Source of the DNA: a virus | Virus genome (UHGV): UHGV-0201380 | DNA: 43,652 nucleotides | Direction: 5' to 3' (one strand) | Shown here: positions 9,405-43,506 of the stretch, one piece after another | Layout: each line of letters begins with the position of its first letter | Numbering within the stretch: position 1 is the first letter of the stretch | The notes under the pieces: model-generated | What the model saw: only the letters and a program-made list of their open reading frames with translations | Told to the model about the DNA's origin: nothing | The model's database searches: none | Position numbers and translations under genes: made by a program

Positions 9405-9418
9405 ACGCCAGTTGCATT

Positions 9419-9448
9419 CACATAGCGCCCCGCAGGACGCTATAGGCT
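9419..9448 (-). promoter_or_regulatory. Conserved early-region hairpin element, copy 2
   Basis: 30-bp element, 27 of 30 identical to the copy at 10135..10164. Contains a 6-bp inverted repeat ATAGCG/CGCTAT whose stem positions covary with copy 1 (ATAGCA/TGCTAT). Lies 15-45 nt upstream of an early gene start. Confidence 0.4.
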
Positions 9449-10097: not shown

Positions 10098-10134
10098 AAT
10101 GCACCTCTTTGATTGGTTGTTTAGGTAATTACTT

Positions 10135-10164
10135 CACATAGCACCCCGTAGGATGCTATAGGCT
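10135..10164 (-). promoter_or_regulatory. Conserved early-region hairpin element, copy 1
   Basis: Same 30-bp element as 9419..9448, here with stem ATAGCA/TGCTAT. Sits about 40 nt upstream of the 191-aa early gene. Confidence 0.4.
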
Positions 10165-11383: not shown

Positions 11384-12205
11384 AACAATATCTCCTTACA
11401 TAGTGATTAGTAGCGTAACCATAGCGACGATATCCCGGAGGGATAGGAGCGGAGGTTACAAGATTCTAGGTAATGCTTCCCTCCCTACGGTCAGTCATAC
11501 AGGGCATTACTAGGGGATACTAGTGACTACTAGTGAGTAGTAGTAAGTAGTGTGTATATAGTGCCCTAAAACCCTCCTACTCCTGTAACATCATTTCATG
11601 ACAGCTTTCGAATGAAAGTAAGAGCAAGGGGATAGCAAAGAGATAGCGCCGGGATAGTGTTGGGTGAGGATGTGCGCCCTAGTGGGGAGCGCGCAGCGTA
11701 GCATATAATCGGCACAATGTAAAGCACTAGGGATAGCCAGTGGATAGCCTAGTGCATACTAGGGATAGCACCGTGACGCACTACAGCGCACTAGGCAGGC
11801 CCACTATGGCCCCACAATGCAGGCACTAGGCGGGCCCACTATGGACGCGCAAAATAAGCAAGGCAGAGCGCACCCCTACGGCCCACAGGGAGCGCACAGG
11901 GATAGCCCCTAGTGCCCCGTAGAGCGCACAGGAGCCACTCAGTGCCACGCACAGGCCAAGCCGTGGGGCAGCACTAGCGATAGCCCCAGCGCAGCGCAGG
12001 GAGCCACTGAGGCCCTCTGAGGCTTCCGCTATAGCCACGGTCTTAGCTGCCGTGGCGCTCCACACCTCAGAGAGCGCCCTAGGGCCGTCTAGACGTCTAG
12101 GCACCCACCCCACCCCTCCTTTTATGCGCTAGGCACCCCCTATGGGGGCAATTGGCGTCGTTGAGGGTGAGGGAGGCTCAAGGGCGAGTATAATAATTTT
12201 TGGTT
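11384..12205. repeat. Non-coding repeat-rich region, probable physical genome terminus or terminal-repeat neighbourhood
   Basis: About 820 bp with no ORF of 60 aa or more on the coding strand. Dense short direct repeats (GGGATAGC about 8 times, CACTAG/CTAGTG about 9 times), a 21-bp direct repeat CACTAGGC(A/G)GGCCCACTATGG twice about 39 bp apart, and tagt-type microrepeats at 11521-11560. Lies between the last late gene and the early region. Confidence 0.5.
11575..11591 (-). promoter_or_regulatory. Candidate phage-RNAP promoter-like motif, copy A
   Basis: Exact 17-mer TCCTACTCCTGTAACAT (minus strand ATGTTACAGGAGTAGGA), one of three identical copies in the window, here within the terminus region. 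Confidence 0.35.
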
Positions 12206-12667
12206 TCAGATATACACCTGCCCCGGGGTGAAGGCCTTGTGTTGCTCTTGACGTTTCTCTAGTACCCACTTGCAGATAACTTCGTAGGAGCTGTGCTTCT
12301 TCATGTAACGCTTACCGTCCTTCCAGAACTCCCCGCGCCAGCAGGTGCCAGTGTAGTATACACCCCTAGGATGTTCCCGCTTAGACCTGCGTGCGTTACA
12401 GTTGTTTTCGCTAACCGTAGCTAAGCGCAGGTTCTCTAATCTGTTGTCACCGGGGTTTTGGTTGATGTGGTCCACCACATATCCGTCTGGAATAGGCCCG
12501 TTGTGTAGTTCCCAGATGAGGCGGTGTGCCTGTATCTTTCTACCAGATACCTGTACCACCCAGTAGCCACGAGTGTTGCGGGTACCCGCTGGAGCACCGG
12601 CGCGCCTACCCTTGAGCCACACCAAGCAGCTAGGGGATGTTGTGTCATATTTGATGTTCATAGACAT
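12206..12667 (-). CDS. HNH homing endonuclease (HNH plus AP2-like DNA-binding region)
   Basis: 153 aa with HRLIWELHNGPIPDGYVVDHINQNPGDNRLENLRLATVSENNCNA. Last gene before the terminus region. The upstream intergenic region carries GTATCTCTA direct repeats. Confidence 0.85.
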   Translation of the reverse strand: MSMNIKYDTTSPSCLVWLKGRRAGAPAGTRNTRGYWVVQVSGRKIQAHRLIWELHNGPIPDGYVVDHINQNPGDNRLENLRLATVSENNCNARRSKREHPRGVYYTGTCWRGEFWKDGKRYMKKHSSYEVICKWVLEKRQEQHKAFTPGQVYI

Positions 12668-12763: not shown

Positions 12764-14719
12764 TTAGAGATACACCTCCCAGGCTACCTGGGATACATCC
12801 GCTGCGTTACTACTCCTAATCACGAAGCTGTTTAGGTCCGGATTAGGTGTAGGTACATCCTGGTTCTGTGCTACGCCAGTAACCGTCAAGGCCCCAGCAC
12901 TAGAAGGAAAGGTTAACCGCGTCAACTTGACCTCAGACACCCACTTGAAGGAGTTAGCTACGCTGCCAAAGTTTCCGCGTACACGAGCGTTGACCGTAGC
13001 CTCACCCGCAACCAGTGTTGCCACTCCGCGAATGCTTGTGTCGTCCAGTAAGTTCCTGGACATGCGCGGAGGCGTAGGCTGCACAGTATAACCACTCAGT
13101 AATGCCCAAGACACACCGTGACCGGTCATGTCATTATTGGACATAGATACCATGGTAGGGTTAATGCCCATAGTCCCGTGGAAGTACACAGCTCTTCCGG
13201 TACCGTCGTAGCGCATGCTCACGTCATCAATCTCCAGGGATGTCTGCGCTGTCTCAGCCACATCCTTAGTGACGAAGATGTGAGAGCTGGAGTTGCGCGT
13301 GTACCGACCGCCTTTAACACGGCCCCCGTTGATTCGCACACCATTCTGGCTACCGTGAGCCTCGCAGTCATAAACGTAGCCACCACCGTACGAACAGTTA
13401 AAGCCAGAGCGTACGTTGTCATAAGCTAGGCACTCCCTATAGATAGGGAAGGCTACACCGGTGTTGGAGGCGAACCCGTCCAGAGCTGCACGGTAAGCTC
13501 GACAGTTCAAGTACTCTACCCCGTTAGTGCGCGCTTGGAACCCATCGTCAGCACTGTCGTACGAAACGCAGCGAACGAACTTCACACGCTTACCAATGTC
13601 GTGAGTATCAAATCCAGCATGGGTTGTGCTGTAGGCTTCGCAGTTAACGCCTAAGAACTCGATAGGCTCTCCCCACTTGTCCCCGTCTGCAGTGCTCTGC
13701 CAGTTCAAAGAGATTGCGTGGCGTACGTCCATAGCGTGGATATCGTGTACTTCCGTGTCCTCTGAGCAGCCGAGCACCTCTACCCCGTACCATCCGATGT
13801 TGTAGAAGTACGTACCCTTAACGGTGCTGTCTACGCAGTTATTGAACTTGATAGCGCTACGCCCTTCTATATCAGAAGCCCCTGGGCGTTTGTTGCCAAT
13901 AATAACCCCGTCCTGGATGTGCAAGTCCGCGGCAAAGTTGGCAGAGATACCGATAGTAAAGAACCGGTTCAAATCGTCGTAGCCGAACTCGTTGATGTAC
14001 GGGGATACTAAGGTTACGTTCTCCACCATTGTCGGGATACCTACTTCCGCAGCATCAGACAGGTAGTAGTTATAGTGCAGCGCTTTATCCAGCCGAATGC
14101 TGGTGACGCCACCGGAGGTGCTAACACCCACCACTTTCCTAATCTGGGAAATCTTTACCCCGTAGGTGTTAGGCCCACCGTCGCATAGCTTGTTAGAGCG
14201 AAGATACAAGTACGTACCTTTTACCACAGACAAAGCACCAGCAGCCACCGTAATGACTTTGCTGCCCGCCGCAGCGTCCGCCGCTAACGGTACGAACGCC
14301 GATGGTGCCGCGCCGATAATATTAAGCACCTGACGCGCAACCGCAGCGTCCGGTAGGATTCTTCCGGTATCGGTAAACTCTAGCGTAGAGTTGCTTTTGA
14401 TGTTGAGCACACTCGTGGCCTGCAGGACTGTGTCCACAACCAGGTGCCTATTAGGCGCGCTCATGAACGTGACTATGCCTGCCCAATTGCTGAACCAGGA
14501 GCTGTATGCCGGGCCCGTGAATTTACGGAGCAGATACCCACCGGGCACAGCAAACACAGTCCCGTTATCTACTACCGACGCAGCAGTAGTAAAGGTGAAA
14601 TCCCCACCACCACTGCCCAGTAGGATAATCTTGTCCTGCACCTGAAAGTTTGGATATGCTACCATGCTCGCCAAGTCGGAGAATACCCGCTCTGGAGCTA
14701 CTAATCTAATTAACGCCAT
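12764..14719 (-). CDS. Tailspike protein, probable polysaccharide depolymerase (beta-helix)
   Basis: 651 aa, Gly/Asn/Thr/Ser/Val-rich composition typical of parallel beta-helix tailspikes. Encoded after the lysis cassette at the genome end, as in KP34-like phages. Substrate unknown. Confidence 0.7.
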   Translation of the reverse strand: MALIRLVAPERVFSDLASMVAYPNFQVQDKIILLGSGGGDFTFTTAASVVDNGTVFAVPGGYLLRKFTGPAYSSWFSNWAGIVTFMSAPNRHLVVDTVLQATSVLNIKSNSTLEFTDTGRILPDAAVARQVLNIIGAAPSAFVPLAADAAAGSKVITVAAGALSVVKGTYLYLRSNKLCDGGPNTYGVKISQIRKVVGVSTSGGVTSIRLDKALHYNYYLSDAAEVGIPTMVENVTLVSPYINEFGYDDLNRFFTIGISANFAADLHIQDGVIIGNKRPGASDIEGRSAIKFNNCVDSTVKGTYFYNIGWYGVEVLGCSEDTEVHDIHAMDVRHAISLNWQSTADGDKWGEPIEFLGVNCEAYSTTHAGFDTHDIGKRVKFVRCVSYDSADDGFQARTNGVEYLNCRAYRAALDGFASNTGVAFPIYRECLAYDNVRSGFNCSYGGGYVYDCEAHGSQNGVRINGGRVKGGRYTRNSSSHIFVTKDVAETAQTSLEIDDVSMRYDGTGRAVYFHGTMGINPTMVSMSNNDMTGHGVSWALLSGYTVQPTPPRMSRNLLDDTSIRGVATLVAGEATVNARVRGNFGSVANSFKWVSEVKLTRLTFPSSAGALTVTGVAQNQDVPTPNPDLNSFVIRSSNAADVSQVAWEVYL

Positions 14720-19656: not shown

Positions 19657-22600
19657 TTAATCGTCTCCGAAGTTATTGATGATAGCTCGCGTAGGTGCGA
19701 ATTCCTGGATTAACGGCACCTGCTTAGTGAAGGTCTTGATATCCATATTACCGGTAGCCAGGTCCTGCACAGCCCCAAGTAGTCCTGTGACGTAACCCAT
19801 AGATGCCAATGAGTGACGGGGAGAATCCCCCAGGAAGATATCCTGTAGTAAGGATACACCGCCAATGGCACTCATACCCATCACGGACTCACCGATGAGT
19901 TTCTGGGTGTCTACGTCCTTCCCATCCATACCGTGCTTAGCCATAGTAGCCAGTAGCATCAGCGGGAATTGATACGCCATAATATGGGCTACGCCAATCC
20001 ACCCAGCGTCGCTCAGCTCCCTACGCAGAATCTTGTTAGTGGCGGCCAGTGCGAAGCTCTGGTACCCTACAATGACTTTGCCGATAGGGTTGAACTGTGC
20101 AAAGTGTGAGGTCTCTCCAGTACGAACCTGCTGTACCAGGTAGTCCATCATACGCGTCCCTACAACCTCAACTTGCATTTGCAGGTCCGGCTGGAACATG
20201 GCGCCCGGGTTGGCTTTGTTGGCAGCGATGGCACGGTCAGCAACGTCGCGGGTAAGCCCGAAACGCTCCAGACGCTTAAACGCCGCAGCATCACCCTTGA
20301 ACATCTGGGTAAGCTCATCCGCCACAATGCCGGAGTTCAGGTTAACCTGCAGCCGGTGCACCATGCTCATACCGTTGACGTGACGCGCAGCCTGCCCAAC
20401 GTTCTGGGTTACATTGAACCAAGAGGCCTGACGGGTCAGGTCCAGGTTATCGTCGGCGTACGTATTCAACCAGCGGAAGCGCATCTCCTTCTGGATATTA
20501 CCTCGCAGTACAGTGTCTAGACGGGTAGCCATATCCGGAGTCTTGATAGCTACGGCACCTTCCTTGAACCAAGGCTGGTCACGCATACTACGCAGCACTC
20601 TAGCCATACCGAACTCCTTCATAGCCAGGGCAGTGTCAGTCAGCTGATACAGGCCGGAGTTCTTAAGCATGGTGGCGTTAGCCATGTTCCCGGCTGCACG
20701 CAGCAAATCCGGAAGCTGTCCGGCGTCAGCAGGCGCCCCACCCAGGATAAAGTCGATGGTGTCATTGACTGTCTTCTCCCACTTAGCGGAATCCGCCAGT
20801 GCGTGCTTAGACTCATCAATCATCTTAGCTAGCTGGCCCAGGTCCTGTACGCCTGCATAGGCCATGCCTACACGCCCAGACATACGGTTAGTGTACCCGT
20901 GCATAACCTTGGCTACATCAGTATCCATCAGGTCCTGCATGCGCATGCTCTTACCGTTCACCAGATACTCTTTGTCCATGTTGAACCGAGTACGCTGACG
21001 CAGGTTCCGCGCAGGGGATGTGCTACCGGATTCGCGTACGTTACCAGCCAGGAAACTCTGGATTGCAGATTCATCTACACCAGCGCTACGCATAGCCATA
21101 ACGACCTCGTCGTTACCCATGCCGTTAATCAGCTGCTTCCACATCGGGCCGGACTGCCCTGCACGGCCGTTGTAGATACCGTCAACCATCTCCTTTGCAA
21201 CACGCTGCACTACCTCTGACTCCATGCTCGGGTACACGTCCCGCAGGGCGGACCTGAACAGGGCGCGGTAGTCGTCCAGAGTGTTACCCTGCGCAATACC
21301 TTGGCGCATCTTGTCGTAGCTGTACTGACGCGGGAAGTAGTAATCGGATTTAACCAACGCACCATCATCCACTAGACCAGCATTGAGCATATGCTCGTGC
21401 CACTTGCCTGCCCAGCCAGAGCGGCGATAGGCGTCAACCAGTGGGGCAATCTCTGCATCCGGTACGGGAACAGCTCGGCCGTTTACATCAGCACTGTAGG
21501 CAGCATCCAGGTACTTGCTCAGGCGGTCTTCCAGTGCAGCCCGCTCAGCGCGGAACTTGCTCCGATGGAAGAAGCGCTCAGAGAAACCTACACCCTTATC
21601 CTTCAACGCGCCCAGGATAGCGTCTTCCACTACGCTAGCGCTGGCGTCCATCTCCAAAGTGAGGTTGCGCTTGAAGTCCACTACAGACGGGCGACGGCCG
21701 CCTACTGCGGACGCATCCGACACTAGCAGTTTAGCCAAGTCTTCATTGCCTTGAGCGATGTTATCGTACAGGGCAAACATAGTAGAGAGCTTCTTCTTAG
21801 CGCCATCCAGCATAGCTTGGGCACCCTTAGCCTCGTTTAGGGTAGTGCTGCCCGCCAGGTCCTGGAAGGCTTCACTACGGAAGCCCTGGGCTTGGTCTGC
21901 ATAATCCTTAGCTGTCCACTTAACGGCGTCCTCGTACGCATCCAAGACATCTTCCAAGGCAGAACCTTTGGCCTTGATGCCCAGGGCATTCATGATGTAC
22001 TCGCCCAGTTGGCGGAGCATGCTCTTACCGGTTGGGGATTTCGTCCGCGCCAGATGCTCAACCCACTCAGGGCTGTCACCTAAGCCTGCCAGCATCTCGT
22101 GCACATTACTAGCGTAATACCGCATACGCGGCGTCAAGGTGGAGTCCGCTGCAATAACAGCGCGCACTTCATCCAGGCGCTTAGCAATCTCTGGGTTACT
22201 GTCAACGGCGCGCGCAGTGGCGGCATGAATCAGTTCGTGCACGGCTACCCTGCTTGTGTCTGCATCCATAGCACGCAGTGCGTCCCCTGCTGTAGTCCAT
22301 GTGCTGCCATTAGCTCGCTTAGGTGCGCGTAGAGACACCTCTCCACGCTTAGCTAAATCTTGCTGTGCGTAAGTGTAGCGGCTGCGGTTTGCGGAGCCTG
22401 CTACCAGTTTAAAATCAATGTCATTTACAGCATCGCCCAGCGTGTCCAGAATAGCCTTCTGGCCTGCTGTTAAGTGTTCGGACTTCTTCAAGAACTGAAC
22501 TACGTGCTGTGCTTTCATGTTCACGGAGGCGGTATTGTTTCTAGATACTTGGATGCTTTCATCCAGTGTCTTAGTAAGGATTTCCTCTCCCTCTCCTACT

Positions 22601-23355
22601 CCTGTAACATTAGCGTCCCTCGCTGTACGAGTTGTAGGCGCTTCTGGGTCGAACATAGGCTCACGCCCAGTACGAGCCTTAGCAGCAGCTTTAGCAGCCC
22701 TAGACATATCCCAGAGCTGGTCCAACCCAGCTACGCCCGCTACCAGTGCAGTTACCGCAGCAGACTGGCCCAGTTGGTCCTGCGCATAGAATGCGGAGCC
22801 TACGTCAGCAGCGCGGATAGCAGTCCGTGCAGCTAAGCCTGCGCGGCCAGCAATACCAGCGGCAGACATCGGGGCCAGGATGAACGGAGAATCACCCACC
22901 AACATACCCGCGAACCCGGCTACCGTGTTGTCAGCCATTAAGCGGTCACGGTTGCGTTGCTCAAGCATCTGCTGCATGCGGTAGTTGTAATCCTCGACCG
23001 ATACAGAGTCGTGCAGGTACTCAATCTCTTCCTGATTCGGAGCATACAGCTTAGCCCTGGTATCGCTGCTCAGAGTCTGCTTGGCGTTAAAGTTCTGGTC
23101 CCGGTCAAATGCCGGGGCAGAGGCCTTACGGATAGCTGCGGCGATGATGCTGTTACCCATACCAGACGCAAAGCTCTCCCCGGCTGTAGTAGCTGGGGTC
23201 TTGGCCTGCGCCAGTAAGGAGGCACGCTCCAGTGCGTTTAAGCCGTTGTCTCCGGCATCGTTCCAATCTACGCGCTCAGGCGCAGGTTTAAGTGTTGCGC
23301 CCTTAGCAGAATCCTTTTCCTGTGGATTCGGTTCTTGGTTCAGAAACTGAGCCAT
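19657..23355 (-). CDS. Internal virion protein (T7 gp16-like ejection/core protein)
   Basis: 1232 aa; largest ORF, last of three consecutive internal virion protein genes between tail tubular B and the tail fibre. Confidence 0.75.
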   Translation of the reverse strand: MAQFLNQEPNPQEKDSAKGATLKPAPERVDWNDAGDNGLNALERASLLAQAKTPATTAGESFASGMGNSIIAAAIRKASAPAFDRDQNFNAKQTLSSDTRAKLYAPNQEEIEYLHDSVSVEDYNYRMQQMLEQRNRDRLMADNTVAGFAGMLVGDSPFILAPMSAAGIAGRAGLAARTAIRAADVGSAFYAQDQLGQSAAVTALVAGVAGLDQLWDMSRAAKAAAKARTGREPMFDPEAPTTRTARDANVTGVGEGEEILTKTLDESIQVSRNNTASVNMKAQHVVQFLKKSEHLTAGQKAILDTLGDAVNDIDFKLVAGSANRSRYTYAQQDLAKRGEVSLRAPKRANGSTWTTAGDALRAMDADTSRVAVHELIHAATARAVDSNPEIAKRLDEVRAVIAADSTLTPRMRYYASNVHEMLAGLGDSPEWVEHLARTKSPTGKSMLRQLGEYIMNALGIKAKGSALEDVLDAYEDAVKWTAKDYADQAQGFRSEAFQDLAGSTTLNEAKGAQAMLDGAKKKLSTMFALYDNIAQGNEDLAKLLVSDASAVGGRRPSVVDFKRNLTLEMDASASVVEDAILGALKDKGVGFSERFFHRSKFRAERAALEDRLSKYLDAAYSADVNGRAVPVPDAEIAPLVDAYRRSGWAGKWHEHMLNAGLVDDGALVKSDYYFPRQYSYDKMRQGIAQGNTLDDYRALFRSALRDVYPSMESEVVQRVAKEMVDGIYNGRAGQSGPMWKQLINGMGNDEVVMAMRSAGVDESAIQSFLAGNVRESGSTSPARNLRQRTRFNMDKEYLVNGKSMRMQDLMDTDVAKVMHGYTNRMSGRVGMAYAGVQDLGQLAKMIDESKHALADSAKWEKTVNDTIDFILGGAPADAGQLPDLLRAAGNMANATMLKNSGLYQLTDTALAMKEFGMARVLRSMRDQPWFKEGAVAIKTPDMATRLDTVLRGNIQKEMRFRWLNTYADDNLDLTRQASWFNVTQNVGQAARHVNGMSMVHRLQVNLNSGIVADELTQMFKGDAAAFKRLERFGLTRDVADRAIAANKANPGAMFQPDLQMQVEVVGTRMMDYLVQQVRTGETSHFAQFNPIGKVIVGYQSFALAATNKILRRELSDAGWIGVAHIMAYQFPLMLLATMAKHGMDGKDVDTQKLIGESVMGMSAIGGVSLLQDIFLGDSPRHSLASMGYVTGLLGAVQDLATGNMDIKTFTKQVPLIQEFAPTRAIINNFGDD
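22594..22610 (-). promoter_or_regulatory. Candidate phage-RNAP promoter-like motif, copy B (intragenic)
   Basis: Exact 17-mer TCCTACTCCTGTAACAT inside the gp16-like gene, about 760 nt from its start. Confidence 0.3.
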
Positions 23356-32192: not shown

Positions 32193-33788
32193 TTAACTTG
32201 GTAATAAGCCCAGCTGCTTACCTGCTACTGTCGGGTCCGCTGCTGTCAAGCCCTGGAGTTGGTCCTGTGCTGCACCTGCGGATACATCGGCAGACGCATC
32301 TTGAACCTGTTGCTTCTGCTGCAGCTGCTCTTCGGTGTACATGAACGGCTCGCTGACGATACCATAGGCGTCGAAGTACCAGTCTACACACGCATCCTTG
32401 TTGAAGCGCGGAGTAATCTGCTCAAGCACCGGGATAGCCAGCTGCATGGACTGTGCCGCCTCTAACAGCTTGTCCGCTGCTGCGGCCTTAGCCAGCGCAG
32501 AGGTACCTACTGTAACGTTGATGCTCACCACGCCTTCGCTGAGGTACAACTTAAAGCGAGGGTACACCAGTGCAGTGTACAGGTACGCCAGCTTACGCAG
32601 CCAGGTGTCGCTCAGGATACTGAACCCACCACCCATAGCGGCTTCCGCCTCTTTGGCGTTCTGGCGAATCTCATAAGCCGTGACACGCTCACCCTGCCGG
32701 GAGTTGCCGGTGTACATAAACGCACGAGACAGTTTCTGTTCGAGCATCTGGATGTTGCTGGCAATCCACTGAATCTTCTGGGCAGAGCCGCCCTCGTAAG
32801 CAGTGACAGGAGACTTAGTGTTTCCGTTGGAACCACCGCCGCCCACCTGCACGGCCTCCCCGGTCTCCGCCGTAGAGAACTCGTCCACATCCAGGCCAGA
32901 ACTAGAATCTACTAGTGGAATCAGCCGAGAGGCTTCGACCTCGTAGTTAGTCAGTGCTTCCGACAGTACCGATAATCGGGCAAAGTCCCCAGCGTAGTCC
33001 TCTACCAAGCCGCGCCCGTAGTGCTCGCCACTAACAAGGTTCCACACCAGCACGTTGTAGGGGAGCTCCAGCTCCGGATAGGTGCTGCTGTCCCCGATAC
33101 GGTGTCCATCGGCTTCTTGATACACCTCGTAGCTTACTACCTCTACGCCTTCCTCTGTCCGCTTAACTTTGCGACAAGCGGCAGTGTAGATATCAACGTC
33201 GCCGTATGGGTCTTTGTCACGGTAGAAGGTGTTCTGGAAATCCTCTGGCAGGTCCTGGACGCTTGTGCGCTCTCTGATAATGAGTCGCAGGACGTTCCCG
33301 CTGCCATCCCTTCGAACGGTAAAGTTACGAACTGAGTAGACGATGGATTTACCTGTCCGCTCATCAATATACTCCAACGCGTTACCTGTAACCAGCAGCA
33401 GCTTCACAGCTTGCAACTTCGCAGCATAACCGTCTTTCTCAAATACTTTCTGTGACGCTGTGTTCTCAACCTCAGCCAGCTTAGATTCTGCCGTAGCTGC
33501 ACTGCCCAGCGAACTAATGAACTCGTCCAGGTCCGAACTCTTGGAGAACCGGAAGAAGCTAGTGCCCTGAGGGAACAGTGCCCCTACAATCTTAGTGGCT
33601 GCAGTGTTGACCAGCTGCGCGCCGGTGCTCTGGTAGTCACGCTCTAGCGGTCTGCGTCTACCGTCCAGGGAATCGTCCCGGGTAAAGATAGTGCTGAGCG
33701 TCCACTGCGCGAACTTCTCGGAGGCATCCAATACACCTGCGTCCTGGTCCTTCTTAAAGAGTTCTGCTAATGTTGCTTTTTGTTCCAA
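32193..33788 (-). CDS. Portal (head-tail connector) protein (T7 gp8-like)
   Basis: 531 aa. Motif GERVTAYEIRQNAKEAEAAMGGGFSILS resembles T7 gp8 GERVTAEEIRYVASELEDTLGGVYSILS. Confidence 0.9.
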   Translation of the reverse strand: MEQKATLAELFKKDQDAGVLDASEKFAQWTLSTIFTRDDSLDGRRRPLERDYQSTGAQLVNTAATKIVGALFPQGTSFFRFSKSSDLDEFISSLGSAATAESKLAEVENTASQKVFEKDGYAAKLQAVKLLLVTGNALEYIDERTGKSIVYSVRNFTVRRDGSGNVLRLIIRERTSVQDLPEDFQNTFYRDKDPYGDVDIYTAACRKVKRTEEGVEVVSYEVYQEADGHRIGDSSTYPELELPYNVLVWNLVSGEHYGRGLVEDYAGDFARLSVLSEALTNYEVEASRLIPLVDSSSGLDVDEFSTAETGEAVQVGGGGSNGNTKSPVTAYEGGSAQKIQWIASNIQMLEQKLSRAFMYTGNSRQGERVTAYEIRQNAKEAEAAMGGGFSILSDTWLRKLAYLYTALVYPRFKLYLSEGVVSINVTVGTSALAKAAAADKLLEAAQSMQLAIPVLEQITPRFNKDACVDWYFDAYGIVSEPFMYTEEQLQQKQQVQDASADVSAGAAQDQLQGLTAADPTVAGKQLGLLPS

Positions 33789-33797
33789 GCTACCCCC

Positions 33798-34064
33798 TTA
33801 CAGGCCCAGAGGATTGCTCTGCCCTGCTTGTCGCCGTTTCTTCTGCTCAGACGTAATTGCATCTGCAGATTCAGAGGCAGCCCCTGCGGGGTCAATCTCA
33901 GCAATGTTATCTGCGGCGCTATTAGCCTCTAAGGCAGCCTGTTGTTTAGCTGCACTGGCCTGCTGCTCTGCCAAGCGCTGCTGCGCCTCTAATCCTGCGT
34001 TGTCAGTAAGGCCGAGCATGTCCGTGGCCTTACCTAACAGCTTACCTAAATTACCACCACTCAT
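33798..34064 (-). CDS. Small hypothetical protein upstream of portal (T7 gp6.7/gp7.3-like by position and composition)
   Basis: 88 aa, Ala/Gln-rich with basic C-terminus (KKRRQAGQ). Confidence 0.4.
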   Translation of the reverse strand: MSGGNLGKLLGKATDMLGLTDNAGLEAQQRLAEQQASAAKQQAALEANSAADNIAEIDPAGAASESADAITSEQKKRRQAGQSNPLGL

Positions 34065-34501
34065 TCTGACCTCACTAAATGATAAGTTGTCTTGTACGTG
34101 TTATCCGATGTACTCCGGCTAATGGCTATACGCCCAGCGCGCATGCATTTGGCTATTGCGCGCAGGCCTTGCATAATCACAGACACTGCCGCGCCGTTGT
34201 CCGGTTTCAATACGAAGAAGTCTGTATACAGCACAGGCTCTACGTAATGACAGTCCTCTACAGCCTCTGGGTAGTAGCTGACAGCACCGACTAAGTCGCC
34301 TTGGGAGTCATAGACCCCTAGTATATACTGTTTACCCAGTATACTTCCCAGCACCCTCCAGTAGTGCTGCTCTGGAGCCAGGCCCCGACTAATGCCGTGG
34401 CCCAGTTCATGCAGTTGCTTCACTGCGTCCGTAATGTCGTCAGACTTATACAGAACTCTGAGAGTGTAGTCGGAAGTTTTACTAGTGTGTTTTAACTTCA
34501 T
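34061..34501 (-). CDS. Hypothetical protein, first gene downstream of RNAP
   Basis: 146-aa ORF. Its ATG immediately follows promoter-like motif copy C, whose GGAGTAGGA end doubles as a Shine-Dalgarno-like sequence. Confidence 0.5.
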   Translation of the reverse strand: MKLKHTSKTSDYTLRVLYKSDDITDAVKQLHELGHGISRGLAPEQHYWRVLGSILGKQYILGVYDSQGDLVGAVSYYPEAVEDCHYVEPVLYTDFFVLKPDNGAAVSVIMQGLRAIAKCMRAGRIAISRSTSDNTYKTTYHLVRSE

Positions 34502-34518
34502 TCCTACTCCTGTAACAT
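34502..34518 (-). promoter_or_regulatory. Candidate phage-RNAP promoter-like motif, copy C
   Basis: Exact 17-mer TCCTACTCCTGTAACAT (minus TTAATGTTACAGGAGTAGGA), immediately after the RNAP stop and before the structural module. Loosely reminiscent of T7-group promoters in length and the TAAT-start/purine-rich-end layout. Confidence 0.4.
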
Positions 34519-34526
34519 TAAATTTT

Positions 34527-36995
34527 TTAGCAGAAGAAGAACGGGGATTCTAGCACTTGCCGGATGTCCAAAGTGCCCACTTCCGGCATGTCCAGGTCCG
34601 TCAAGTCTGCCCCGGCTGCTGCTGCTGCGCGAGTAATGTCGCCAAGCAGGTCATTCTCTTCATACAGGCGCACAAACTGCTCACGGATGTGCCTATGCAT
34701 AGCGTCAACGTCAGCTGCGTGAGTAGCCAGCGAGTCGTGAATAGGCACAATATCCAGACCCTCCGCAGCGCAGAGCACCATCATCAAGTGCGTACTGTCC
34801 AGGCTATGCACAAAGTTCGGGGCAATCCCGGAGGCTGCCTTGCGCTTGTTGCAAGTTTTGAAGTCCCGGTTGTGTACCAGTACCGCTGATAGGTTCATGC
34901 AGTCAATACGTACGCGCACTTCTTCACGCTGCGTGTAGCGGTTCATTACGAGCCCACCCAGCGGCGTATACCACTGCAGATGCTGGCTTGCCGGTACACG
35001 CCTAGCGAGGTTCTGCAAGTACCCCATAACTGCGGCTGCGGCTGGGTTTGCCTCCTCGATAGCAGTGCGCATACGCGGAGCCAGGTAGCATGACAAGTTC
35101 CACAGACTGTTAGTCTCAGTACCCTCGTACCCCTCAGCGCAAGCGCCTTCGAAGATGTAGTCGCTGCAGCTGCGCACAGTGGCGCTGTAGAAGTAGGTCA
35201 TACTAGGGCGCTTGGTCATGCTGCGGGTGATTTCGTTCTCTCTCCAGTACGTGCTCTGGATAACGAAATCCTCCTTGTCCAGGTCCAGTATCACCTTCTC
35301 GTCCGTACGGCGCTTCACGTCCATGTACAGGTCCGCTTTCTTATCATTACCCTCCCAGTACAGGTTCGTCAAGCGTCCGCCCACAGGGTCTCTCAGGAGC
35401 GCTGAGAGATGCTGTCCACCTGAGTTTGTAGCGTCCATAGCAACTGGGATTCGGCTAATATGCTCTTCTGGGCATCCAGAACGAACCGCATTAACCAAGT
35501 CGATAGCGGCGGCCAGCAGGCACCAGGGGCTATCCGCAGAGGAAAAAGCAGGGGCATCAAGAGGAGAATCCGCGAGCCTCTCAATCTCTGCATAGTTCGC
35601 ATCAACCCAAGCTGCACGGTCTTCGAATAGGGTTTTGTCATAACCAAAGCAAGTGGCGACGTGCACTTTAAGCCAGAAAAGTCCGCGCTCTCCCAGAGGC
35701 TTGCCACGTCCGAATTCAAGAAGGGCTTTCTGCAAATCAGAACCTTGGGGATGCAGCGAGGACTTGAAGTACAGGCGGTAGCGCCAGTCCACACAAGTCG
35801 GGAAGTACAGGGCTTTCTCATCTTTGAATTCCTCCGCCATTTCCAGCGTGGTCAACAGGCTGCGTAGTTGTGACACACGCTTACGGTCTGCGCTGTACCA
35901 TAGGGACATGCGCGTCTTCCACTCACCGAAGCGGTCCAGTTCTTCTTCGGTGTAGTTCTCTTTTGGTACTCCATCCAAGTACCACTCCGGTTTAGGCTCT
36001 GGTACTGAGCGGGGCATGCCCACCCCAATACCCAGGGCCCGTGCTTCTTGCACCAGTTCCAGTATGCGCTTATTAATACGGTATGGGGTTTCCTGCGCCT
36101 TATTAAGCGCCTTTTTGATGCCGTCCGCGGACTTGAATGCTTCTGCTACTTCACGGAGTCGCGCGCGGTCGATGTGCGAGTTGTGATAGGTCCCGCGATT
36201 GTCGATGGGGGTAAGGTACCCGCCATCCCACATAGTGGTGTGCTGTACCGGTGGCACCAGCATAGGCGGCTTCATGGTTACGGTATCAGCGGACTCTACC
36301 AGTTTCTGGAAGGCCTCCATAACATCGTCAGCCGGGTAGAGCATGCTCAGGTTCCCACTACAGTTCTTCCATTGGAACAGGCCAGTCTCAAACACCGCGG
36401 CACATAGCAGCCGACCTACTGAGATATTCTGGGAGTTGGTCCATGGCTCGTGCCCATAGTGCACGTTCTCAGCACTGGCCCGCAGCGTACGCAGGATGTG
36501 CGTGGGAGACTTGGTCTTACGCTCCGTAAGGTACTCGTACACACGGTCCATGTACGCCGGAGCCACGTTGCGTAACTGCAGGGCCAGCAGTTCCGATTGT
36601 ACGTTCCGGCCCAGCGCGGACATTACCGCCTGTGCAGTCTGGCGGCGGCTAGCGGACTCGCCAGGAGCTACGCTAAATGCCTCAAACATTGTGCATAGGC
36701 TCAGGGTGGTCAGGACATCCAAGGGGACTAAGCGCAGGAACCGGCGGTACTTACCGCCAATGCCCGGGGCTTTTACATTTCGCATCTCATCGATAGCGGC
36801 GGCGGCCACCTCATATGCCGAGGTGAGCATACGCTGCGTCATCGGCAGGTTCATAATCCCACCGTTCTGCAATGCGTCCGTAATCAGCTTACGTGCCCGC
36901 TCGATTCCGCGAATCTTATAGGTCTCTTCAAGCTCCAGCTGGCGTTTCACCAGTGCTTCCTCTGGTACTACAACCGTATTCAGGGCGCTAATCAT
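34527..36995 (-). CDS. Single-subunit DNA-directed RNA polymerase (T7 RNAP family), located next to the structural module
   Basis: 822 aa. Motif A-like PVAMDATNSGGQH, motif B-like RSMTKRPSMTYFYSAT, motif C-like PIHDSLATHAAD. AAGGAGA Shine-Dalgarno. Placement directly upstream of portal is the phiKMV-like hallmark. Confidence 0.95.
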   Translation of the reverse strand: MISALNTVVVPEEALVKRQLELEETYKIRGIERARKLITDALQNGGIMNLPMTQRMLTSAYEVAAAAIDEMRNVKAPGIGGKYRRFLRLVPLDVLTTLSLCTMFEAFSVAPGESASRRQTAQAVMSALGRNVQSELLALQLRNVAPAYMDRVYEYLTERKTKSPTHILRTLRASAENVHYGHEPWTNSQNISVGRLLCAAVFETGLFQWKNCSGNLSMLYPADDVMEAFQKLVESADTVTMKPPMLVPPVQHTTMWDGGYLTPIDNRGTYHNSHIDRARLREVAEAFKSADGIKKALNKAQETPYRINKRILELVQEARALGIGVGMPRSVPEPKPEWYLDGVPKENYTEEELDRFGEWKTRMSLWYSADRKRVSQLRSLLTTLEMAEEFKDEKALYFPTCVDWRYRLYFKSSLHPQGSDLQKALLEFGRGKPLGERGLFWLKVHVATCFGYDKTLFEDRAAWVDANYAEIERLADSPLDAPAFSSADSPWCLLAAAIDLVNAVRSGCPEEHISRIPVAMDATNSGGQHLSALLRDPVGGRLTNLYWEGNDKKADLYMDVKRRTDEKVILDLDKEDFVIQSTYWRENEITRSMTKRPSMTYFYSATVRSCSDYIFEGACAEGYEGTETNSLWNLSCYLAPRMRTAIEEANPAAAAVMGYLQNLARRVPASQHLQWYTPLGGLVMNRYTQREEVRVRIDCMNLSAVLVHNRDFKTCNKRKAASGIAPNFVHSLDSTHLMMVLCAAEGLDIVPIHDSLATHAADVDAMHRHIREQFVRLYEENDLLGDITRAAAAAGADLTDLDMPEVGTLDIRQVLESPFFFC

Positions 36996-41972: not shown

Positions 41973-42918
41973 CAAGCAGCATCGGGATTAACTGCGGACA
42001 GCCCTCGGTGATTACCATCACACCCAGGATTGGTTTCTTGCGGGTGAGTCTGCCGTAAGCAAAGGCCATGCTCTTACGGTCAATCAGACACCCAGCATAC
42101 GCACCAAAGTACAAAGCTGTTGAGCTAGCTGCATATTGCACCTCAAAGCGACCATGTTCGTGACCAAGGACAAGGCTGGTTCTTTCGTGGCTAGCGTTGA
42201 GCATGAAGTCACCCGACACTTGATGCTGGAATCTAACCGGGCCAAGTGGGGTATTGAGTACCCATGCGTCAGCCCAAGACCACGCCGGGGCACCATGCTC
42301 AGGGAAAAGTATATCTCGGTACTTCTTGATGAATTGCACTGGTAGCCCGTGAGCTTTCGCCCTGCGGTAAACCAGACTGCCGTGATTGGAATCGCAAACC
42401 AGTAGGTTCGGGAATAGTTCATGCAGCTCCTCCAGTACGAGCTTGGCTTTCTCCAGCTCCACCCCGGCGCTATCTAGGTTCGGGTTACTTTCGTGGAATG
42501 ATATAGCGTGGCCGTCCGTCTCGTCGCCTACCTGTACAACCATGTCCGGACAGTAGGCGTCTCGCACAGATTCTAAGAAGGCCATAGCATCTACGTGCGT
42601 ATAGGGGGCATGCAAATCCCCAACTACGAGAATACGGTGGCACACTTCCGGCACGAAGGTTTTGCCGATGTCATCAGTGGGACTGGGCTGTATGAGCTTT
42701 AGTGCCTCCTTCATGTGGGATATTGCCTTACCCTTGCTCCCAGCGTGGTCTAGGAATATGCTGCGCCAGTACTTCACCATCTGTCGATACACCACTGGCT
42801 CGTCCAGTCCCGCCAGATTATTATAGGCGGCAGCAGCATCCACGTTAGAGCTGTGCTTGCTCAAGATATCTATGTGTTGCTCTTTGGTGAATAGCTTTAT
42901 TGTGTTTAACTTAGGCAT
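41929..42918 (-). CDS. Calcineurin-like metallophosphoesterase (Ser/Thr protein phosphatase / phosphodiesterase superfamily)
   Basis: 329 aa with the ordered motifs VVGDLHAPY (GDxH), VQVGDETDGH (GDxxD), CDSNHGS (GNH[DE]-like) and LGHEHGRF (GH-x-H). Substrate cannot be assigned. Confidence 0.8.
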   Translation of the reverse strand: MPKLNTIKLFTKEQHIDILSKHSSNVDAAAAYNNLAGLDEPVVYRQMVKYWRSIFLDHAGSKGKAISHMKEALKLIQPSPTDDIGKTFVPEVCHRILVVGDLHAPYTHVDAMAFLESVRDAYCPDMVVQVGDETDGHAISFHESNPNLDSAGVELEKAKLVLEELHELFPNLLVCDSNHGSLVYRRAKAHGLPVQFIKKYRDILFPEHGAPAWSWADAWVLNTPLGPVRFQHQVSGDFMLNASHERTSLVLGHEHGRFEVQYAASSTALYFGAYAGCLIDRKSMAFAYGRLTRKKPILGVMVITEGCPQLIPMLLDDSGRWCARDKTKD

Positions 42919-43345
42919 TCCAGCTCCTGTTACTTATTACGTCACTAATTACATGTACACCTACACCGTACTTATTAGCAAAGTGTTGCCGCATACCTTT
43001 CTTGTATGGGATATAGTTATCCCTGATATCCTGCACAGCATCCCAAGTTAACTGCGCTTTTGGGTTCCTATCCCCACGCACATCTGGGTTCCTTCCGCGC
43101 TCTGCACGGTCCCGCATATTATCCATATGCGTTCCCAATACTAAGTGCTTAGGGTTAATGCACCTGGGGTTATCGCAGGTATGTCTAACAGACAGGCCAG
43201 CCAGCGCCCTTATATCCAGCCCGTTATGCTCAGCATACACCACCCGATGCAGCAGCTCCAATCGCCTGGTCGGCTTATACCATGCCCGGCGGTATCCGTT
43301 CTTGTTAAGGCATTTGTTATACCCGTGGTCAATACACATCGACAT
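42911..43345 (-). CDS. HNH homing endonuclease
   Basis: 144 aa with HRVVYAEHNG ... HTCDNPRCINPKHLVLGTHMDNM. Overlaps the phosphoesterase start by 8 nt. Confidence 0.85.
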   Translation of the reverse strand: MSMCIDHGYNKCLNKNGYRRAWYKPTRRLELLHRVVYAEHNGLDIRALAGLSVRHTCDNPRCINPKHLVLGTHMDNMRDRAERGRNPDVRGDRNPKAQLTWDAVQDIRDNYIPYKKGMRQHFANKYGVGVHVISDVISNRSWNA

Positions 43346-43506
43346 TCGGTATCCTCTTGTGTTGTTCCTACTCGTATCACATTAATTCTCTGTGAATCAC
43401 AGAATCAAGCTAGAGTCAACAAATAATTTTATTTAATTATTTAGTTGACCCCAGTGTATTTCCATGCTACCCTAACCCCCTACACCACCCAAGGGTCCAC
43501 CTATCA

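Follow-up and report, generated by a model that had tools for sequence, protein, structure and literature searches.

With high probability, three identical copies of a 17-bp motif serve the single-subunit, T7-type RNA polymerase (RNAP) that the phage itself encodes as its late ("strong") promoters; this promoter type is already known, having been described in Klebsiella phage KP34 in 2019. The copies lie in a window of 43,652 nucleotides (UHGV virus genome UHGV-0201380; "the window" is this whole stretch), which, judged by its similarity to sequenced phages, is a Drulisvirus, that is, a KP34-like Klebsiella phage. The window holds the whole genome, circularly permuted and carried on its minus strand. 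The terminal repeat of KP34 maps to window positions ~12173-11906 by blastn, the blastn segments shared with KP34 are roughly 82-98% identical, and around one of the three copies (copy C) ~250 GenBank phages match at 84-94% identity, almost all of which are KP34-like Klebsiella phages of the genus Drulisvirus. The polymerase gene is the following:

34527-36995, minus strand: single-subunit RNA polymerase gene, 822 aa, homologue of KP34 gp37

Its product matches T7 RNAP structures at E ~1e-68 (HMMER), with only ~27% identity. It shares 801 of 822 residues (97%) with KP34 gp37, and residues 661-720, spanning the specificity loop, are identical in the two proteins; within that loop, codons 703-706 encode S-A-V-L (34878-34889, minus strand).

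An exact search of the whole window reproduces what the initial annotation had claimed, namely three exact copies in one orientation: TCCTACTCCTGTAACAT occurs on the plus strand at 11575-11591, 22594-22610 and 34502-34518, and the same three copies read ATGTTACAGGAGTAGGA on the minus strand. Because all long ORFs of the window are on the minus strand, the copies point along the direction of transcription. That such a repeat is not expected by chance was borne out by dinucleotide-preserving shuffles (n=100), in which the mean was 0.11 matches at ≤3 mismatches against four observed, with 0/100 shuffles reaching four. The degenerate search that had been proposed as a check was run in the window at ≤3 and ≤4 mismatches and yielded one further site, at 43366-43382, with 3 mismatches; at the level of the 18-mer, nothing was found at ≤4 mismatches on both strands of the whole window beyond four sites, A to D, all on the minus strand. 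With two flanking bases added, the motif is T(A/G)ATGTTACAGGAGTA followed by GG, copies C (34520-34503) and B (22612-22595) reading TAATGTTACAGGAGTAGG and copy A (11593-11576) reading TGATGTTACAGGAGTAGG. The TAAT start noted earlier thus holds for B and C (TAATG..., for which the two flanking bases are needed) and not for A (TGATG...). The three sites, with starts placed at the G that corresponds to the KP34 start, are as follows:

34520-34503 (16-nt unit 34520-34505), minus strand: predicted promoter C, S1 type, TAATGTTACAGGAGTA followed by GG; predicted +1 at G 34504
22612-22595, minus strand: predicted promoter B, S1 type; predicted +1 at 22596
11593-11576, minus strand: predicted promoter A, S2 type, TGATGTTACAGGAGTA followed by GG, in the non-coding left end; predicted +1 at 11577

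Copy C does lie, as had been stated, in the short gap between the RNAP stop and the next gene: the gap is 25 nt long and ends at the ATG at 34501, and promoter C starts 6 nt past the stop and ends 3 nt short of the ATG. Promoter B is within the gene for a 1232-aa internal virion protein (19657-23355), 743 nt in, where it covers the codons A-N-V-T-G-V-G. Measured from the position that corresponds to the left terminus of KP34, promoter A is ~580 nt further in, upstream of a sigma70-like early promoter at 10814-10786. Between the RNAP stop and promoter C, roughly one relative in five carries an inserted gene 350-490 nt long with an HNH endonuclease annotation; examples are the IMG/VR loci L026, L059, L065 and L102 and the GenBank phages SU503 (KP708985) and NTUH-K2044-K1-1 (NC_025418). 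In these genomes promoter C still adjoins the homologue of gp38, the first gene downstream, and the motif is intact.

The strong promoter of KP34 RNAP was defined as the 16-nt sequence 5'-T(A/G)ATGTTACAGGAGTA-3' (Lu et al. 2019, Front Microbiol 10:2487, PMC6834552). Purified KP34 RNAP alone initiates at it, as seen by in vitro transcription and 5'-RACE, and also transcribes a genomic fragment containing the RNAP gene and the gap that follows; most 5' ends map to KP34 nt 22213, with the G directly after GAGTA as +1 (PMC6834552). Strong promoters were placed at nt 475-490 (S2, TGATG) and at nt 22197-22212 and 33721-33736 (S1, TAATG); S1 and S2 are of equal activity on synthetic templates, the 14-mer common to both is much weaker, and the 16-mer suffices on a plasmid (PMC6834552). 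This evidence is from in vitro work, with RACE on a genomic fragment for the site after the RNAP gene only, S2 assayed on oligonucleotide templates, and the internal copy (the equivalent of B) found by sequence only (PMC6834552). Copies B and C are identical to KP34 S1 at 18/18 positions, and copy A is the S2 variant, with G at position 2, as in KP34. A scan of KP34 places A, C and B opposite KP34 nt 475-492, 22197-22214 and 33721-33738, respectively, in the same order, on the same strand and with the same flanks. Both phages have strong promoters at the left end, behind the RNAP gene and within the gene for the internal virion protein, and the promoter sequences are identical at all three sites although the two phage genomes are different. 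The earlier suggestion that the motif is a promoter of the phage's own RNAP is in this way upheld by a letter-for-letter match to the KP34 strong promoter at syntenic places, with an RNAP 97% identical. Its premise, that phiKMV-like promoters are poorly defined, has been overtaken by the work on KP34 (2019, PMC6834552) and on phiKMV/LUZ19 (2024, PMC10914365). In the phage studied here, activity is inferred by homology to KP34, and the transcription units are predictions.

KP34 has in addition a weak promoter, W, with a homologue in the window:

34574-34555, minus strand: homologue of KP34 weak promoter W (ACTTTGGACATCCGTCAAGT), located in the RNAP gene at its 3' end

The window sequence has one mismatch to that of KP34 (T to G), at a synonymous position of an Arg codon where relatives have G, T or A. 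This variability is consistent with the view of Lu et al. that W is a weakly constrained relic.

According to the mechanism proposed here, the unit read would be the 16-nt T(A/G)ATGTTACAGGAGTA on the minus strand, with transcription beginning at the next G. The RNAP, encoded just upstream of copy C, would bind the duplex in the manner of T7 RNAP, melt the last few bases and start with GG. T7 RNAP recognizes the AT-rich 5' end of its promoter through an N-terminal loop and the central bases through the C-terminal specificity loop; by analogy, the window RNAP would use the same two elements. The specificity loop of T7 RNAP reportedly contacts bases -7 to -11. By HMMER alignment, residues 703-706 of the window RNAP correspond to T7 RNAP Q758-I761, and R694 and R696 to T7 R746 and N748.

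Whether the motif is absent at syntenic positions in related phages had been put forward as a check. A first survey of IMG/VR was biased, as it searched by the motif itself, and the survey was repeated with IMG/VR loci picked by similarity to DNA polymerase or tail tubular protein B, giving 63 contigs. Every contig that covers the region of A, B or C has the site, in each case on the coding strand and never on the opposite one, so the proposed refutation fails. Within a genome the three sites agree at base -7, which is position 10 of the 18-mer: all have A or all have C, and mixed genomes do not occur. For comparison of the polymerases, 53 RNAP sequences were used (23 and 29 distinct in the two -7 classes), and among their 162 variable columns only residues 703, 704 and 706 split perfectly with base -7. 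Genomes with -7 A have N-L-S-A-V-L and those with -7 C have N-L-T-I-M/V/L-R (loci L107-L222), overall RNAP identity within classes overlaps with that between classes, and the window and KP34 both combine SAVL with -7 A. In the coding copy B, third codon positions vary at 2/7 inside the motif versus 53/59 in the flanks, and the common change there is the synonymous ACA/ACC, which matches the -7 base of the other sites. In the pattern of variation among relatives, the -7 switch, the loop residues that follow it and the frozen synonymous sites show selection on the DNA sequence itself together with co-evolution with the polymerase, as a promoter predicts.

These data also bear on the idea of a repeat that arose by chance or is neutral, such as functionless remnants of duplication. 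The small copy number speaks for it and nothing else does, and it is contradicted by the shuffle expectation and by the invariance of the motif in 63 relatives while flanks vary, synonymous sites included; its probability is practically nil, and we take it to be refuted by the conservation data. Equally, a sigma70 promoter (-35/-10 with 16-18 nt spacing) was considered and rejected, as no such site overlaps any of the four copies.

The exact 18-mer was found elsewhere in IMG/VR, in unrelated AT-rich viral contigs (L004, L010, L020, L034, L037, L044, L047, L057, L062, L085, L086, L088 and L100), where it is inside repeats encoding ..(D/N)VTGVGTAR... Copy B of the window likewise encodes N-V-T-G-V-G. 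About 30 such other exact IMG/VR matches were discarded as promoters, being coding sequence for ..DVTGVG.. and hence a coding coincidence; for one further exact IMG/VR match (L073), no phage match was found.

At copy C, the motif overlaps the start region of the first downstream gene:

34061-34501, minus strand: gp38 homologue, 146 aa, first gene downstream of promoter C

Its Shine-Dalgarno sequence, AGGAG, is inside promoter C (-9 to -5), 5 nt before the ATG. With +1 at 34504, the leader would be 3 nt only (GGA-AUG) and AGGAG would be upstream of +1, so that the Shine-Dalgarno sequence would be present only on read-through or W-initiated transcripts. Such a leader is awkward for translating the first late gene and counts against the promoter reading. 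On promoter-C transcripts the gp38 homologue would be nearly leaderless, and this layout (34499-34512, minus strand) is invariant among relatives. It may be asked, then, whether the motif is a translation-initiation region, AGGAG and spacer being repeated before genes. The position of AGGAG before the 146-aa ORF is in line with this, as is a ribosome_binding_site annotated around copy C in phage Putnam, a GenBank relative. However, no start codon follows copy A, and copy B is in frame inside the 1232-aa gene, so that AGGAG 5-9 nt before a start is found at C only; moreover, the conserved block reaches 9 nt upstream of AGGAG (TRATGTTAC; TAATGTTAC), which would be superfluous for ribosome binding, and base -7 tracks the RNAP, not the rRNA. 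This explanation is very unlikely for the motif as a whole, and at copy C only a dual role is possible, the promoter serving also as a ribosome-binding site on read-through transcripts.

It has also been considered that the motif is the site of some other sequence-specific protein (for replication, packaging or repression) or a target of recombination or homing. Copy A is near the genome end, and the HNH endonuclease gene found in some relatives between the RNAP gene and copy C could be seen as fitting a homing site. Yet those insertions are upstream of the motif and leave it intact, the motif variant goes with only one protein change, which is located in the specificity loop of the RNAP, and purified KP34 RNAP by itself initiates at the motif (PMC6834552), which together make this explanation scarcely credible. 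The reading as late promoters of the phage RNAP is retained in what follows.

From copy C, transcription would run through the gp38 homologue, portal, scaffold and capsid genes as far as an intrinsic terminator:

29709-29682, minus strand: strong intrinsic terminator that follows the block of capsid genes and separates promoter C from promoter B

The terminator has a 12-bp stem, a UUCG loop and 9 U (-26.5 kcal/mol, z = -5.5), and the KP34 annotation has a terminator at the equivalent place. Copy B would then re-supply transcription to the distal late genes, encoding tail fibre, terminase, lysis proteins and tail spike. In T7, the phiOL promoter is near the left genome end; copy A is positioned in the same manner, and its candidate roles are late read-through of early genes, DNA entry and replication.

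In T7, promoters directly follow the RNAP gene, others are in the late region and one is near the left end. The window has a T7-like arrangement, copy C coming right after the RNAP gene, copy B falling among the late genes and copy A being close to the left end. The number of promoters is 3 or 4 here versus 17 in T7, and the RNAP gene closes the DNA-metabolism block here but opens it in T7. The T7 class III promoter (TAATACGACTCACTATA followed by GGGAGA) shares with the motif its layout, consisting of a TAAT 5' end, a central block for the specificity loop and a start at a TA-GG junction, with 16 upstream bases here and 17 in T7. Compared with the T7-group promoter (TAATACGACTCACTATAGGGAGA), only the TAAT start and the TA-GG junction are in common, and the central sequence is unrelated. 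The motif, as far as can be read from its sequence, works like a T7 promoter and is no member of the T7 sequence family.

A closer comparison is provided by Phikmvvirus, in which the LUZ19/phiKMV phage promoter is 5'-GgtTATGTCACacACAnnGG-3' and ONT-cappable-seq of LUZ19 located such promoters directly behind the RNAP gene and among the structural genes (Putzeys et al. 2024, PMC10914365), a layout that the window shares. The LUZ19 and window motifs have the same ATGT(C/T)AC-N7-GG spacing and occur in few copies per genome. They differ in the 3' half, which is ACACAnn in LUZ19 and AGGAGTA in the window, and in the early region, where the LUZ19 copy is antisense and window copy A is sense.

The fourth site of the window, D, deviates from the other three:

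43384-43367, minus strand: site D, TAATGTGATACGAGTAGG, with mismatches at -10, -8 and -6

Site D falls between genes, past the DNA polymerase gene and ~20 nt before the ribosome-binding site of a 144-aa ORF (42911-43345). With its 3 mismatches it departs from the 16-nt consensus, and it ignores the -7 A/C switch. It is identical in KP34 (nt 12983-13000) and in 54/55 relatives, within a conserved intergenic block, and in relatives a variable stretch of 8-10 nt ends exactly at its TAAT. A sigma70 promoter at D was rejected: the scans list none, and by hand TTGATT-N18-TAATGT has only 3/6 in the -10 element, with a TTGACT 29 nt upstream. The promoter-identification section of Lu et al. deals with two genomic fragments (early and RNAP region) and leaves site D unmentioned (PMC6834552).

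Erwinia phage Micant offers a comparison for site D. Its promoter-like consensus, TTTAGAGTAACACGCTTAGGAG, is found in two tandem copies after the RNAP gene, and the site after its DNA polymerase gene is ATTAGAAGTACACGCTTAGAAG, with the same TTGACT 29 nt upstream. Because the Micant equivalent resembles Micant's own consensus, site D appears to track the genus-specific promoter. Five TTTAGAGTAACACGCTTAGGAG-related sites were seen in Micant (L256), at 463 (minus strand) and at 12536, 14014, 20429 and 20513 (plus strand); the left-end site is antisense, like LUZ19 P001, and the Drulisvirus site A is sense. Koutsourovirus was also tried as a comparison and was uninformative, the guessed promoter being present in only a single copy per genome. 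It is about an even chance that D is a weak, class-II-like phage promoter, and it is listed as a candidate. If this were true, D, as a fourth promoter, would drive the later half of the DNA-metabolism genes along with the RNAP gene itself, which would amount to positive feedback.

The early region contains another repeat that had been a promoter candidate:

10133-10164 and 9417-9448, minus strand: 32-mer AGCCTATAGC(A/G)TCCT(A/G)CGGGG(T/C)GCTATGTGAA

This 32-mer was predicted to be a phage promoter (Eriksson 2015), but Lu et al. (2019, PMC6834552) found it inactive when KP34 RNAP was used. The two copies fold as 10-bp hairpins (-20.6 and -23 kcal/mol, z = -5.2 and -3.9) and differ by a compensatory A-U to G-C change; the repeat is probably an RNA hairpin or a terminator of the early region.

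Outside the window, and to be taken as a lead, not a finding, promoters of the KP34 type were encountered in prophages. Of the exact IMG/VR matches that do not belong to Drulisvirus, two (L012 and L045) are identical to site C over 23-24 nt, the common stretch being AATT-TAATGTTACAGGAGTAGG-A(A), and are temperate lambdoid phages. The locus concerned, here called a cassette, is found in five temperate Klebsiella phages from GenBank, in 23 IMG/VR contigs (L012 and L045 included), which are those that match a dual-promoter pattern, and in 5/5,426 E. coli genomes; the loci aligned (alignment A1) are L045:586-870, L012:5085-5330, L223-L227, L228-L248 and L251-L253. Flanked by the Rz1 spanin gene on one side and the terminase genes on the other, it runs antisense to the late genes and consists of five parts:

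part 1: palindrome of 16-20 nt, GTCTCTTATAAGAGAC
part 2: T7-like promoter (..GACTCACTATAG..), ATTAAGACTCACTAT(T)AGGAAGG or TAATGCGACTCACTATAGAGAG
part 3: KP34-type promoter ~70 nt further, ..TTACAGGAGTAGG, ..TTACCGGAGTAGG, ..TTACACGAGTAGG or ..TTAAACGAGTAGG
part 4: AACCAAGGAGG, a strong ribosome-binding site after the KP34-type promoter
part 5: ORF of 36-38 aa with one hydrophobic helix, 17-residue Kyte-Doolittle maximum 1.6-2.45

Among the prophage copies, -7 A and -7 C are both represented, as in Drulisvirus. The cassette contains no polymerase gene, and its peptides have no significant match in Pfam, PHROGs or PADLOC. The dual-promoter cassette had 0 matches in species-representative bacterial genomes; a looser pattern gave 2 matches there, in unrelated taxa, which were set aside as probably due to chance. 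A TATWAGG pattern was mis-specified and retrieved prophage cassettes only, so it is uninformative on the T7-like variant in lytic phages.

One tentative reading, which we hold to be possible and on balance somewhat doubtful, is that the cassette is a promoter trap, the membrane peptide being transcribed only by the RNAP of an invading Autographiviridae phage, so that lysogens would detect the phage. The outcome, if the trap is real, would be abortive infection or exclusion, and the -7/specificity-loop switch of Drulisvirus might then belong to an arms race. Tandem T7-like promoters lacking an RNAP gene were reportedly described in 2006 in prophage-like islands of enterobacteria, in a report said to predate knowledge of the KP34-type promoter. 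Those islands reportedly resemble the cassettes in having two tandem phage-RNAP promoters and no polymerase gene nearby. Literature searches on Drulisvirus transcriptomes and on promoter-trap defence returned nothing relevant.

For the window, what is gained in annotation is three phage-RNAP promoters with inferred starts, a homologue of W and a terminator that splits the late region. This may be of use for engineering KP34-like therapeutic Klebsiella phages and for RNA synthesis with RNAPs of the KP34 type. The three promoters as such are a matter of annotation only, without new biology, and the by-products could matter more, namely the RNAP/promoter variant pair, the conserved site D and the prophage cassettes. 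In particular, SAVL with -7 A and TI(M)R with -7 C form a natural pair that points to the residues that read -7, and these natural RNAP/promoter variants suggest an orthogonal enzyme/promoter pair.
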